This document shows positions 9,476 to 31,880 of a stretch of DNA of 64,000 bases, one piece after another (the first letter of the stretch is position 1; the number at the start of each line of letters is the position of its first letter). Where the stretch lies: contig CDLV01000021.1 in NCBI GenBank assembly GCA_001244265.2, positions 1 to 64,000 on the forward strand, written 5' to 3'. A model generated the notes under the pieces. The model ran no database searches. It saw only the letters and a program-made list of their open reading frames with translations, and was not told the origin of the DNA. The translations under genes were made by a program, and so were the position numbers. This stretch comes from Microbotryum violaceum. Taxonomy: Eukaryota.

Positions 9476-10059
9476 GTTGCGAAGGGTGAAAAAGTAGAGC
9501 GAAGGGCGGGCACGGAGGTGGCCGCACTGGTAGCTCGGTTGGGCTAATAACCTGTGATGTTGTCACGCCTGCTCAAGCGGTGGTAAGTCTCTGATCGAAG
9601 GACCAAGGGAGACCAGACCAAGAAGTTGCTTCTTACACACCTGCTCAAGCGGTGGTAAGTCTCTGATCGAAGGACCAAGGGAGACCAGACCAAGAAGTTG
9701 CTTCTTACACACCTGCTCAAGCACTACAGTAAGTTACCGCATCTAGAAGGGTGAAAGATGATAGGAAGAGTAGTGCTCACCTGCTCAAGCGGTGGTAAGT
9801 CTCTGATCGAAGGACCAAGGGAGACCAGACCAAGAAGTTGCTTGAGCAGGAGAGAAACCAGAGTGGGGCCATTTGGCTGGGCCCAAGTCAGCCCAGCCAA
9901 AGTCAGGCGCACGGACCTGGCCCAGGTGCAGAGACCAGGCCCAGAGTGGGAGAGCTAAGGTGGTGAAAAGTAGGCCAAAAGTGATCAAAACGAAGAGAGG
10001 AGGATGTTGAGGTAGGTACAAGATACAAGAAGGACATGAAGGAGATATTTGATCTCACA
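7383..10059 (-). mobile_element. Ty1/Copia family A copy A1 (5' LTR 9553-10059, PBS 9541-9552, gag-PR-IN)
   Basis: LTR TGTGAGATC...CATCACA followed by GGTTATTAGCCC; ORF 9475>7383. Confidence 0.95.
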
Positions 10060-10459
10060 CCCCTTGCCTCTTGGCTGGGTCCGTGCACTTGGCACTGGGG
10101 CACGGACCTGGTTGCGCACTTGCCCCAGCCAACTGGTTCCGCGCTTCTCACTCTCCTGCTCAAGCAACTTCATTGGTCTGGTCTCCCTGGTCCGTCGATC
10201 AGAGACTCACCACCGCTTGAGCAGGTGAGCACTACACTTTCTAGTTCCTCTCTCCCTTCCATAGCCATGGTAACTTACTGTAGCACTTGAGCAGGTGTGT
10301 AATCCCAAGCAACTTCATTGGTCTGGTCTCCCTGGTCCGTCGATCAGAGACTCACCACCGCTTGAGCAGGTGTGTAATCCTAAGCAACTTCATTGGTCTG
10401 GTCTCCCTGGTCCGTCGATCAGAGACTCACCACCGCTTGAGCAGTTGTGCGGTTTCATA
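10060..10459 (+). repeat. 5'-truncated LTR of an A-related Copia subfamily (A'), opposite orientation, target of the A1 insertion
   Basis: Three ~75-nt units homologous to the A-LTR units (ctggtctccctggtccgtcgatcagagactcaccaccgcttgagcag); ends GGTTTCATA where host A2 sequence (ACTTGGACC) resumes. Confidence 0.8.
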
Positions 10460-12901
10460 ACTTGGACCGGGCAAAGGGAGGGCATGCGCTTTGGAAGCGA
10501 GACAAGCATTGCAGTAAAAATCCCGGAGCTCCTGATCCTTATACACCCAATCCACCCCAGTAACCAAGCCTTTCTGCACAATGTTTTTGATTTGCGCAAC
10601 GGGCAAGTGCGCGAGGCGACGGTGCAGAGTCAGCAAGGACACTTTGGTAGGGATGGCGAGGAGGGCTTTGGGCGTACAGGGTGTAGGTCCAAGTGCCAAG
10701 GCGTACAGTGTGACAAGTCCACTCTCAGCTCGGCAGAGGCGCCTCGGTCGGTGCGCGCACCCGCTAGCCCGCCCCCTGCGCTGGGGACTTAGACGCGCGC
10801 GACTGACTCAGCGCGCCAGCGCCGGGTGGGTCCGTGCGCGTGCCCACTAGGCCGCCCCTTGCGGTGGGGACTTAGGCGCGCGCGACTGCGTTAGCGCGCT
10901 AGCAACTTCACCCGCGACTGGGCCTATCCAGCGCGGGTCCCCTTTCTATTTCTTAGCTTCCCTCTCACCACTTCTGTTCAACAATCGACCTCTCCTGACA
11001 GTAGTGGTGATTGTCTCATAGGTATGCTGAAATAGACCACTTCTGTTCAACAATCGACCTCTCCTCAGTAGTGGTGATTGTCTCATAGGTTATTCGCCCA
11101 TCGACCTACCGCTGGCATGGACACGTCGTCGCCCCTAACGACGGGTGCCCACCCAACAATCCCGCCGAACAGCTCGCCGCACTTACGTCGCTGCTGTCGG
11201 GTCTCACCACTGCCACATCCGCCACGTCGTCCGGCACCTCTCGCCCCGCCTTTCCCAAGCACGCACGCTTGGATGGGCCCAAGACGTTTGCGAGCTGGAC
11301 ACGCCAGCTTCGCCTCTGCCTCGCGGACGACATCCGCTCATACGTCCTCGACGGGATTGTGCCCGCCGACTGGACACCTTCGCACCGCTCTGCCCGCGAT
11401 GTCGTGGCACGTGAGCTCCTAGCGAACTCGATCGACTCAGCCGACGTCTCGGCAGTCCTCGACCAAATCCCTACCGCCGACCTCACAGCGCCCAAAATGT
11501 ACTCGACGCTGAAATCGCGGTATGCTCCTGACGACGCCACTCGCACGCTCGAGCTCTTCTCCCGACTGTGGAGCTTCCGGCCCATGCCTGGCACCGTTGG
11601 CGAATTCGACGGCTGGATCATGGAGTTCAAAGCTATTGCGCAAGAAATCATCGATACGAAGACCACGATCAACGATGTTCTCGCCACACTCCTCCTCGCC
11701 ATCGCTCACCCGTCCCTCGAGAGTTTCAAGGCGTCGTTCACCGATGAACAGCGCACTCAACGATCTCTCCCTGCTATCGATTCGCTCGCCGACCGCATGC
11801 GTGTTCAACTTCGGTCCACCAACGTCCCCAGCACCCAATCGGCCCTTCTTGCCTCGTCGTCGTCACGTCCTACCCGTCCCAAGTGTCTCGCCTGTCGCAG
11901 CCCTTCGCACCGTGTGGCGGAGTGCCCTGTGAGAGCGACACACCCGCCGCCAGGACCCTGTCGCTCCTGCAAGCAGAATCACTGGTCTTTTGACTGCAAA
12001 AAGGCTCTCGGAACAGCAAAAAGGCCGACACGGCGAACTCGACCGCCGACCCGCAACACCATGTCGGATGTATCGCCACCGGTCTTCTCGCTCGTCGCCG
12101 CCAGCTTCGCACCAACTCTTTCGTCGTTGACTCGGGGCCACCTCGCACATGGTCTCGGACAAGTCGCTGTTCACGACCTATCGCCACATCGCTCCCACAA
12201 AGATTGGAGGCATTGCAGGGGGCATCAACGCCATCGGAACGGGAAACATCGCCTTCGTTGCCGCCTCGGGCCATCCGATCACGCTCACTGGCGTGCTGCA
12301 CACTCCCGGCCTGTTCGTCAATCTCCTCTCGGTCTCTCGACTTTGCGACACCGACGACGTCCGTGTTGCCTTCACGAAACACGGCATTGACATCACCAAA
12401 GACGGCAACAACATCGCTGAAGGCACGAGGCTCGACGAGGGACTCTACTTGCTGGACGCTGATCATTCCAAATGTCAGCATCTTGCTCTCCTCTCTCGTT
12501 CACGGTCTTCCGTGCCCCTGCTGACTCTCCACCGCTGCCTCGGCCATCTCGCACCGTCGTCCATACAGAAGATGGTTGCCGCTGGTTTGCTGGAGGGTCT
12601 CGGGGCCGGATATAGTGACGAAGAGGTAGAGAAGTTTGTCTGCAATGCTTGCCTTAGTGCCAAGGGCCATCGTCTTCCTTTCCCCGATTCGGATTCGCAC
12701 TCATCCGAGAGACTCGGCCTGGTACACAGCGATGTGCTTTCCCTCCCGGAGCGTTCCTTGACTGGCAAACGATACCTGGTCACGTTCCTCGACGACTACT
12801 CGCGCAAACTGTGGGCCTACGCAATCGGACATAAAAGCGAAGTCTTCAGTGTGTTCAAGACTTGGCTTGCCGAGGTCGAGCTCGAGACAGGTGCAACACT
12901 G

Positions 12902-29800: not shown

Positions 29801-31325
29801 TGCCATGGTAGATAAGTTCCCCTTTGTGTACGTTGTCCAACACGACACCCCTCAGAGCCTCGATGGTCCACTTGGAGTTTGGTCTTGAAGCTTTGCATTG
29901 TGTTAGCCCAGTTGTCTTAGCGCGGCCCTTTGCTAGAACCTCACCTGACTCGCGCGCCCCTGTGCCTTTCTTCCTCTTCTCTACCGCTTCCCAACATTAG
30001 CTAGACGGCTAATCTTTGGTAGAGAACAGATCGTCCAGCCGCACCGCGTCCGTCTCATCAGACCGCGCCCTTGTCGCCTTGCGACTTCTCCTGTTGACCG
30101 TCTGTTGCATCCTTGCCACAACAACGCTCCACCAGTAGCCCTAGCGGTCGCTACGCCAAATTCCGATAAGCTCTTTGGTACCCATTCAACAACCGTTGCC
30201 CCGACAGACCAATGCGCCCAAGCTTACTACGCCCACCTTAACCGGGAATACAACCCCACTTTGGCACAATCCACACTTTGTCTGCTCCACACATTTTTCA
30301 ACATCTTGCGCGCCCCGATCGACGAGAAAGACTTCGTCACTTGGATGGCCAAATTCATCGACCAAGCAAACTGCCTTGAATCCGCAAACATCACGATCAC
30401 GGACGTCATCACGGCTAGGGCACTCACACTGATACCGGATGAACTGGATGCATTCCGACAGTACATGGAACTGCACAACACCGACCAACTCCCAACACCG
30501 GCGAACCTGATGGCCCTCACGCACAAACAGATCAAAAATCACCATGACACCCGCAACACAGGCTCAAACATTGCCGCATTTGCCGCAACTTCATCATACC
30601 CCACGTCGTCATCCAGATCATCAAAACCAACCCCGGCCCTATTTGTCTGCCCCGCCTGCAAAACCAGTGTACACCGCATCCGCGACTGCCCCAACAAAGA
30701 CGCGCGCAAACGATACTTTGAACAACGCAGAGGATAGCAACGCCCAACCATGGCCCCACCCATCACACCATTGGAGGACACACCCATGGTAGCATCAATC
30801 TTGCGGTTTCAAGAACTACCAACATCCTCTCTTGGCCAAAATTGGTAAAGTCCCCGCTCCGCGCACACATCCAGGTCTCACTACACCGGTCACTGCCTCG
30901 TCATCAACAACACCTCGTCCAAGCCTCCCTTCGTGCTCTTCTGGAAGCGTTCAAACGAGGGGTGGTGTTGAATTTCATTCTACTACAAGCCTTCGAACAC
31001 TTCAACCTCGGGCGCCCTTTTTCGCCTCGGCGCTTTTCTCGCCTTGGGCGCCTTTCGTAAGCCGCCCCCTTGTCTTCGCAGCTAAGCCGCCCCCTTACTC
31101 AAGCGGCCAAGCCGCCCCCTTCTCACCCGCGCGCGCCGCTCCCTCCACGCCGGGACTTCGTCATATCCGCGCCTCTCACACGTTACCGAGCCAAGGCCTC
31201 CACCTCGCCACAGCCAGTTGCCGCCTCCGACCTCATGGACCACAGGCAATACAGAACATTGCCCCTCCATGAAGTACGTCGCCTACCACCTGAAACTCAC
31301 CGTAACGGATTGCCACCTCCAACAA
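29801..31325 (+). mobile_element. Degenerate LTR element family C copy C1 (LTR ~29801-30028, gag-like ORF 30105-30737)
   Basis: LTR-like segment homologous to 31326-31628; ORF with CCHC knuckle CPACKTSVHRIRDC; no recognisable pol. Confidence 0.7.
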
Positions 31326-31880
31326 TACCAGACGGGATAAGTCCTCCCCTCGTGTTCGTCGTCCAACACAACACCTCTCAGCCTCGATGGCCCACTAAGA
31401 GTTTGGCCTTATGTGCTTCACAATGTGATAGGCCAGCTTGCTATAATTCACCCGCGCGCCTGCCTGATAGAACTGTGTCCATCCCGTGCCTCCTTATGCC
31501 TTTCTTCCTCTTCTCTACCGCTTCCCAATATTAGCCAGACTGCTAATCTTCGGTAGAGAACAAGTTAGTTGCAATCTCATCCACCGCTTCCCAATATTAG
31601 CCAGACTGCTAATCTTCTGTAGAGAACAGATCGTCCAGCCGCGCCGCGTCCGTCTCGTCAGACCGCGCCTGTGCCGCCTCACGACTTCTCCCCCCCCCGG
31701 CCGACGTCGCACACAGCAGCCTCGTCGTAGCTCCACCAGTAGCCCAAGCGGTCGCTACTCCCAAGTCCGAGACTTCTTCGGCATCCACTCAACAATAGTC
31801 TTCCCTCTTCGGTCTAGCAGCGTCGAGGGGGTCGACTCGGGCAGCCCATCATCCAACCACCCGTGTGCGCTCGTGCTGCC
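31326..31880 (+). mobile_element. Family C copy C2 (LTR ~31326-31628 with duplicated terminal unit, short truncated internal region)
   Basis: Homologous to 29801-30200 (gataag..gtccaacac..gcctcgatgg; accgcttcccaa..gtagagaacagatcgtccagccgc; ctccaccagtagccc). Confidence 0.7.

Follow-up and report, generated by a model that had tools for sequence, protein, structure and literature searches.

Retroelements copy themselves from RNA, so a short and efficiently spliced intron should be lost from them. Retroviruses retain introns by packaging unspliced genomic RNA. In a Penelope-like element, a 75-bp intron of the 5' untranslated region (5'-UTR) is kept through transposition, and its deletion abolishes the expression of a reporter (Schostak et al. 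2008, PMC2377424). It has also been reported that a tandem duplication can at a single stroke give rise to a functional intron (Hellsten et al. 2011, PMC3265369), that introns located at the 5' end raise expression in a red yeast related to Microbotryum (PMC5124236), and that poorly spliced transposon transcripts trigger RNA interference (RNAi) in Cryptococcus (PMC7175516). Here we describe long terminal repeat (LTR) retrotransposons of the Copia type whose LTRs contain tandemly duplicated segments with the features of short spliceosomal introns. They reside in a stretch of 64,000 nucleotides of Microbotryum violaceum (positions 1 to 64,000 of contig CDLV01000021.1, assembly GCA_001244265.2), referred to below as the window; in M. 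lychnidis-dioicae, Copia-like elements are the commonest LTR elements (PMC4469406). A preliminary description of this DNA assumed that retroelements normally lose introns, which is overstated in the light of the two cases mentioned above, and its author was aware of no report of such a design. The latter agrees with our own search: in open-access papers and bioRxiv (main articles) we came across no LTR retrotransposon described as having a whole intron in its LTR or leader, and the word 'intron' appears 0 times in the main text of a survey of fungal Copia elements (PMC5445492).

The arrangement is carried by three families, designated A, B and C. In each of these Ty1/Copia lineages, a short transcribed end of the LTR, situated between a CT-rich tract and the primer-binding site (PBS), appears to have been tandemly duplicated. 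The duplicated LTR end is a 47-62-nt unit with the potential to form a hairpin (-29.8 kcal/mol, z -4.96 for A; -16.2, z -2.2 for B; -12.3, z -3.0 for C), and a CT-rich tract precedes unit 1 in A, B and C alike. Because the duplication spans an AG|GT junction, each copy of the unit ends at a potential donor (GTNNG), while the next copy provides a branch motif and a YAG 66-72 nt further on. The segments delimited in this way would be spliceosomal introns of the type made by tandem duplication, and splicing would restore a leader with a single unit and an intact PBS. We consider it probable that they are real introns of the 5' leader. Our preferred reading goes further, and combines leader introns with a strand-transfer copying that homogenises and can regenerate them; it is proposed tentatively, as a possibility that stops somewhat short of being probable. 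The layout itself (a CT-rich tract followed by a tandemly duplicated hairpin), already noticed in the preliminary description, is borne out by the census of copies, by folding and by a renewed reading of A, B and C, and the coordinates and motifs given there for B (13132-13200), C (31564-31629), A (9713-9780) and A', a diverged relative of A (10225-10444), could all be reproduced.

The Pfam domains of A and B follow the Ty1/Copia order. One open reading frame (ORF) of B (14103-16751) contains Pol_BBD, gag_pre-integrs, rve, SH3_retrovirus and RVT_2, in this order, and the N-terminal domain order of A is the same. The Gag proteins of A and B are 24% identical, and one type of PBS is common to the two families. 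Of the Ty1/Copia polyprotein of family C, only a gag-like ORF is present in the window; it lies downstream of copy C1, contains a CCHC knuckle and matches the Gag proteins of both A (tblastn, E 8e-7) and B (E 1e-7). The identity between the A and B Gag proteins and the gag-like ORF of C1 therefore indicate related families, and A, B and C are best regarded as distinct Copia lineages that are distant relatives of one another; to call them unrelated, as was done initially, is too strong. Within the window there is no intact element of family A or C.

Family B is represented by a complete element (12902..18114, plus strand), with LTRs at 12902-13199 and ~17734-18114. Its LTR starts with TGTGACAAG and ends with CTCATA, and a 5-bp target duplication, CACTG, is found on both sides of the element (12897-12901 and 18115-18119). 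This duplication fixes the LTR end at 13199/18114, and the acceptor G (13200) is therefore the first base of the PBS (13200..13222, plus; gag ATG at 13229), outside the LTR. Unit 1, a hairpin of 53 nt (13079..13131, plus), lies directly 3' of the CT-rich tract and places an AG before the donor. The candidate intron (13132..13200, plus) is 69 nt long, i.e. exactly one repeat period, and consists of a 16-nt spacer, which opens with the donor GTATGC, and of unit 2; the motif CTGAC is located 23 nt from its 3' end. The same layout (53-nt unit, 16-nt spacer, second unit, period 69) was found in five of the seven B LTRs of the window, the other two having a single unit. As had been proposed for B, the final AG needs the first G after the LTR: the CACTG boundary places it there, and all three 3'-LTR copies lack the acceptor AG, the next base being C or T, so that the acceptor exists in the 5' LTR context only, beside the PBS. 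These copies include the 3' LTR of the complete element (18047..18114, plus; spacer and unit 2, the LTR ending in A and followed by C) and the LTR at 21244-21646 (cassette at 21579..21646, plus). Two further cassettes are present in a diverged LTR, 92% identical to the others (20114-19714; cassette at 19714..19781, minus), and in the 5' LTR copy 10708-11087 (cassette at 11022..11088, plus), where a 2-nt deletion in unit 2 abolishes the CTGAC motif. The single-unit alleles are an LTR that is ~98% identical to the two-unit copies and is not followed by a PBS (28569..28884, minus), and an older B-type 5' LTR (~87% identical), which is followed by one (25936..26274, minus). Removal of the candidate introns leaves the PBS intact, as was claimed in the preliminary description, and yields exactly the leader of the single-unit LTR alleles of the window.

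The LTRs of family B also vary in length within U3, since the number of repeats differs there: an 83-84-nt tandem repeat is present in ~1.9 copies (10746-10903, 21282-21437, 28687-28868), the 5' LTR of the complete element (12902-13199) is one copy of it short, and two other LTR copies contain an extra repeat of 18-19 nt. Partial copies of B with common LTRs form a chain between 10708 and 21646, in which the LTR at 19714-20114 is inverted. Segment 10807-12901 of this chain corresponds to 12917-15014 (98.7% identity), 15009-16607 to 18114-19713 (98.4%) and 16599-18114 to 20110-21646 (97.4%); the chain could be the result of LTR-mediated tandem arrays, nested insertion or an effect of assembly. 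A segment of 95 nt with GT...AG ends (14587-14681, reading GTCAGC ... CTGAC ... ACAG) is skipped by one contig of a run compared with this part of the window. It falls within the uninterrupted pol reading frame, where Pfam matches gag_pre-integrase, and the skip may be a deletion carried by another genome and not an intron.

Family A shows a more complex form of the cassette. Four of the five A-type LTRs of the window (three A copies and A') have a three-unit layout, composed of unit 1, a piece of 68-70 nt, two more units of 72-75 nt, a 16-nt tail and the PBS, and the remaining one (26688..27037, plus) has two units without the 68-nt piece. In the first 5' LTR (9553..10059, minus; PBS 9552-9529, gag ATG at 9475), unit 1 (9781..9852, minus) is a strong hairpin with the donor at its 3' base. 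Candidate intron 1 (9713..9780, minus) is 68 nt long, with the donor GTGAGC and the end CAG, and is followed by candidate introns 2 and 3 (9569..9712, minus), whose length of 72 nt each equals the repeat period, with the donor GTGTGT and CTTAC 15 nt before the final CAG. Two other 5' LTRs have the same three-unit layout, i.e. 22976..23482 (minus; 68-nt piece at 23136-23203) and 24657..25163 (minus; 68-nt piece at 24817-24884). The A' LTR fragment (10105..10449, plus), 86% identical to A, ends after the third unit, and is composed of a piece of 70 nt (10225-10294) and two of 75 nt (10295-10369 and 10370-10444). The 68- and 70-nt pieces of A and A' agree in all of their first 11 nt and in 24 of their last 26, whereas in the middle, which contains indels, identity drops to ~55%; for the whole LTRs it is 86%. 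Such conserved ends around a free middle make up the pattern that an intron shows, with the caveat that the ends of the piece belong to a homogenised repeat. What the 68-nt piece and the 72-nt units of A have in common is mainly the donor, ACTTAC and the acceptor block GCTTGAGCAG. The units of one A copy (24657-25000) differ from those of the two others (9553-9900 and 22976-23320, all minus) by TCG to TTG and CGA to CAA changes, which fit the repeat-induced point mutation (RIP)-like hypermutation reported for Microbotryum repeats (PMC4469406).

Short upstream reading frames are present in two of the families. The B spacer contains an ATG followed by two codons and a stop (13134-13145), and the 68-nt piece of A (9713-9780, minus) an ATG, one codon and a stop; splicing would delete both from the leader. 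There is no ATG in the C spacer.

In family C, copy 2 (C2; 31517..31629, plus) has two units with a period of 66, and copy 1 (C1; 29983..30029, plus; gag-like ORF from ~30208) has one. Unit 1 of C2 (31517-31563) is followed by a candidate intron of 66 nt (31564..31629, plus), with the donor GTTAGT, a branch-like CTAAT and the end CAG, within which there is also a TAG (31620-31622). No 3' LTR copy of C is present in the window, the homology between C1 and C2 reaches ~30192/31795, ~165 nt beyond the supposed LTR end, and the search for a PBS gave only one block resembling the PBS region of A and B, at 31735-31768, displaced from the cassette. The LTR end of C therefore cannot be placed, and two claims of the preliminary description are not supported for this family, namely that the cassette lies at the 3' end of the LTR and that the final AG needs the first G after it. 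The block in question (31735-31768 in C2, 30123-30155 in C1) is conserved between the two copies, ~105-135 nt past the unit, and is similar to the distal part of the A PBS region; it may be the true PBS of C, which would put the cassette a good distance inside the LTR and not at its very end.

The elements form a nest of near-identical repeats, and the cassettes could be thought to result from an artefact of assembly or from the collapse of repeated LTR ends. We find this extremely improbable, as the layout recurs in independent copies, each with private differences. Moreover, loose contig ends from a run of another organism, at positions corresponding to 19714 and 31576, show the start of the B spacer and a variant C spacer, respectively, so that the two-unit forms are not confined to this assembly. 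DNA-like contigs from four of the 15 runs, compared over 12850-32849, have no joint at the cassettes; they are fragmentary and speak neither for nor against splicing. In one run the word depth amounts to hundreds over the elements, against ~1-7 over the unique part.

To compare the intron likeness of the cassettes with chance, dinucleotide shuffles were used to build tandem duplications whose units and spacers had the lengths of the real ones. A register was counted as intron-like when a product-neutral removal of one period was bounded by GT with G at +5 and by a final YAG, with a branch motif (strict rule CTRAY, loose rule YTNAY) 8-40 nt from the end. The frequency of such a register in the shuffles was 0.0046 for B, 0.0009 for C when idealised with identical units and, for A, 0.024 under the loose and 0.0077 under the strict rule, the real A passing the loose one only. 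Among the product-neutral registers of the real sequences, one of 58 is intron-like in B and two of 82 in A. All three families have U2-type termini, G at +5, a branch motif and YAG (B and C pass strict CTRAY, A loose YTNAY); in A and B the candidate intron spans exactly one repeat period, and the unduplicated sequence is restored once it is taken out, C being 1 nt off. The internal sense strands of A and B contain no intron-like segments (0 in 6.7 kb, of which 4.5 kb are from B and 2.1 kb from A), and an intron-like register is present in none of the five control tandem repeats; the corresponding values are 5 segments in 7.3 kb for a Gypsy element of the window and 1.25-1.75 donors per kb for its host half. 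The intron likeness of the cassettes is non-random. The intron signals read in the preliminary description are thereby upheld for B and A, being rare in the shuffles, and qualified for the real C, which has no exactly neutral register because its unit 1 ends in CAA and its unit 2 in CAG.

The best predicted introns of the host genes in the window span 63-97 nt, carry CTRAY at a distance of 12-30 nt from YAG, and have donors such as GTGAGT, GTAAGT, GTGAGC, GTGTGA, GTTAGT and GTATGT. With 66-72 nt and similar donors, the candidate introns thus fall within this apparent host range. Whether judged by length or by donor, the likeness to host introns suggested earlier is a likeness to predictions, made by joining ORFs and taken from a filtered list of 78 pairs. 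This list replaced a first ORF-joining screen, which gave 4077 candidates and was too noisy.

The PBS of A and B is 23-24 nt long and adjoins the LTR. A pattern common to both occurs six times in the window (9529-9552, 11088-11110, 13200-13222, 22952-22975, 24633-24656 and 25936-25958), against 0 expected. A scan of metagenomes with this pattern returned 119 stretches, all of them resembling bacterial Met-tRNA(CAT) genes on the opposite strand, with no fungal locus among them; ARAGORN confirmed a tRNA at two of the three loci checked. Since these matches are solely to Met-tRNA(CAT) genes, the PBS of A and B is identified, via bacterial genes, as nearly complementary to an initiator-type Met-tRNA over the part that extends from its D arm into the anticodon loop. 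A reading of the hairpin as a device for Tf1-like self-priming was dropped on inspection by eye, given the clear complementarity to Met-tRNA of the site that follows the LTR. Positions 7-8 of the PBS vary between copies (TA, AA, TC, TT), the rest being fixed; in the complement to Met-tRNA they lie opposite the first base of the anticodon and the one that precedes it. One of the metagenome contigs (L017:10700-10760) contains the 5' half of a Met-tRNA on the opposite strand and no 3' half, and ARAGORN reports no tRNA there; this may be the remnant of an integration site, unrelated to the cassettes.

The PBS also gives an indication of how the B cassette arose. When the B spacer is aligned to the 20 nt that directly follow the LTR, 13 of 20 columns match and one gap is needed, a score reached by 3 of 5000 shuffles, and the spacer resembles a decayed copy of the PBS start. 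The alignment therefore suggests that the cassette originated from a duplication of the unit together with the start of the PBS, across AG|GT at the U5/PBS junction. The upstream copy has lost the complementarity to tRNA and now has a G at donor +5. For the spacers of A and C, no significant alignment was obtained with what follows the last unit (shuffles scoring as well: 527 and 3592 of 5000, respectively).

Such an origin may also be read in favour of an explanation that dispenses with splicing, according to which the cassettes are tandem duplications of an R/U5 hairpin, made by template switching of reverse transcriptase and retained because transcription, strand transfer, dimerisation or packaging benefits from additional hairpins or motifs. 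The resemblance to splice motifs would then be a by-product; for example, any LTR ending in A and followed by a PBS starting with GGT gives AG|GT, and if the B spacer is a decayed PBS copy, this junction came free with the duplication. Direct repeats are unstable in retroviral reverse transcription, and Drosophila copia has size variants generated by LTR/leader duplications that alter expression. Each unit is indeed a hairpin, the number of units is variable (one or two in B, two or three in A), the units are homogenised, as unequal strand transfer would make them, the branch motif of A is weak, and the case for splicing is drawn from the sequence. The same explanation has to accept three coincidences of a G+5 donor, a properly spaced branch, YAG and a host-like length, at the frequencies given above (0.0046, 0.024 and, for the idealised C, 0.0009). 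It also has to accept the lack of any intron-like segment in 6.7 kb of internal A and B sequence, the conserved ends and free middle of the 68-nt piece in A and A', and an upstream PBS copy in B that has changed precisely so as to give G at donor +5. We judge the unspliced alternative to be rather unlikely.

The units of a cassette evolve in concert, remaining identical within lineages while the lineages diverge. In the diverged B copy (92% identical) both units have acquired the same two substitutions and the spacer is the same, and in A' four differences from the A units are common to all three units, the layout being unchanged. This identity is predicted by strand-transfer copying, and it was found. 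It is also expected from unequal strand transfer without splicing, since out-of-register transfer homogenises repeats in any case; unit identity therefore supports the location of the repeat in R and the occurrence of strand transfer, and not splicing.

According to the mechanism we propose, transcription would start just past the CT-rich tract, at unit 1, and the 3' end of the RNA would reach beyond unit 2 of the 3' LTR. A transcription start after a CT-rich tract is a feature of fungal promoters. As the intron carries a copy of exon 1, minus-strand strong-stop cDNA could land on either unit of the 3' LTR. When made on a spliced template, this cDNA would be the complement of one unit: its pairing with the distal unit would rebuild the cassette, and pairing with the proximal unit would give a single-unit LTR. 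With unspliced templates, out-of-register pairing would lead to gains and losses of units, which would explain the three units of A and the two in one A copy. Self-regeneration in the strict sense, in which strong-stop cDNA from spliced RNA lands on the intronic copy in the 3' LTR and rebuilds the intron in both LTRs, is possible, if on the doubtful side. The design might represent an adaptation to a host in which introns promote expression, from which the element would presumably benefit, and it would imply a parallel origin or long retention in at least three lineages.

The introns may also be real and be kept without any regeneration: unspliced RNA would be packaged and copied, spliced RNA would serve as messenger, as in retroviruses, single-unit copies would be rare dead ends, and the identity of the units would result from occasional out-of-register transfer or gene conversion. 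This accounts for the same anatomy and the same statistics, makes no assumption about the poly(A) site, and invokes the packaging of unspliced RNA, which is the established retroviral way of keeping introns. A precedent is the 75-bp 5'-UTR intron of Penelope, kept though it is spliced from most transcripts (PMC2377424). It offers no reason for the use of an exon 1 copy in the intron of all three families, nor for units that are fully identical over LTR divergence of 8-14% with a constant layout; moreover, single-unit alleles make up two of the seven B LTRs and hence are not rare. We consider retention without regeneration to be distinctly unlikely.

Several points weigh against leader introns that are maintained by strand transfer. 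The copies compared are a handful from one window, and the host introns that serve as a yardstick are predictions. The branch motif of A (CTTAC; CTCAC in A') satisfies the loose rule only. The LTR end of C is undefined, and the C units differ by 1 nt, so that the exact test gives no product-neutral register. At one position of the unit, the single-unit B LTR departs from the two-unit copies, so that it did not simply arise by splicing from those present here. As stated above, concerted evolution of the units speaks for strand transfer and not for splicing. Finally, three parts of the model are predictions from the DNA sequence: that transcription starts at unit 1, that the RNA extends at its 3' end past unit 2 of the 3' LTR, and that the segments are spliced.

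The surroundings of the cassettes can be described briefly. The G+C content of the window is 57.7%, and the nest of LTR-retrotransposon pieces extends from position 1 to ~31,800, beyond which host genes are located, including those for a sugar transporter (32.6-33.9 kb), an XPG nuclease (36.7-38.3 kb) and PRMT5 (52.4-53.4 kb), the exon of the latter being 97% identical to the protein of Microbotryum saponariae and 94% to that of M. intermedium. The nest also contains a fourth element, Tf2/Gypsy-like, with LTRs of 568-574 nt (104-7382, minus), which lack a terminal tandem repeat. These LTRs (104-671 and 6809-7382, minus) include a stretch similar to the T arm of tRNA, GGTTCGAA, flanked by GC-rich stems, for which neither ARAGORN nor Rfam reported anything. 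ARAGORN identified no tRNA genes in the window, Rfam gave no matches in positions 1-32000, a viral contig collection queried with the B polyprotein gave no match, and neither did a protein atlas queried with one host ORF.

The question of splicing can be addressed with existing RNA data for Microbotryum, for which RNA-Seq from three conditions, namely rich, nutrient-limited and in planta, has been described (PMC4469406). If the segments are spliced, these elements would be natural LTR retrotransposons whose LTR and leader hold an intron in full; in addition, they would indicate that tandem duplication spanning AG|GT can create introns repeatedly, and would offer a simple route for the rebuilding of an intron during reverse transcription. 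If they are not, the finding amounts to recurrent duplications of an R/U5 hairpin with concerted evolution, which is of modest interest. The observations bear on the origin of new introns, on mobile elements in hosts that favour introns, and on the gain and loss of repeats at LTR ends.

The closest parallels in priming are found in Drosophila copia, which, like A and B, is primed by an internal part of initiator Met-tRNA at a PBS abutting the LTR; in the elements described here, two PBS positions facing the anticodon loop vary between copies. Retroviruses also have a donor in or near the LTR-derived leader (R region), and their spliced and unspliced RNAs have different fates. Their acceptor is located kilobases downstream and genes lie within the intron, whereas here a whole candidate intron of 66-72 nt is placed upstream of the PBS. 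In split-intron retroviral vectors (Ismail et al. 2000, as presented in PMC3182074), a splice signal is carried over from the 3' to the 5' LTR in the course of reverse transcription, and a proviral intron results, which is similar to what we propose; as these vectors are described there, they are engineered, with the donor in the 3' LTR and the acceptor past the packaging signal, and involve neither a tandem duplication nor regeneration after splicing.

The Penelope intron resembles the candidate introns in being short, close to the start site and located inside a repeated terminal region of a retroelement, but it belongs to another class of retroelements with another mode of replication, and no copy of exon 1 within it is described in the part of the report that concerns the intron (PMC2377424). 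Intron-bearing transposon transcripts of a basidiomycete are also the subject of the work on Spliceosome-Coupled And Nuclear RNAi (SCANR) in Cryptococcus, where SCANR is a host RNAi defence set off by weak introns (as outlined in PMC7175516). A further similarity is to the Rogers model, i.e. intron gain by tandem duplication of an AGGT segment (PMC3265369). In both cases the intron length equals the period, the same junction ends both copies, and removal restores the sequence that preceded the duplication, which in the window is still extant in the form of single-unit alleles. In contrast to that model, the candidate introns described here reside in the LTR and leader of a retroelement and not in a host gene, are found in three families, and are built of copies that evolve in concert.

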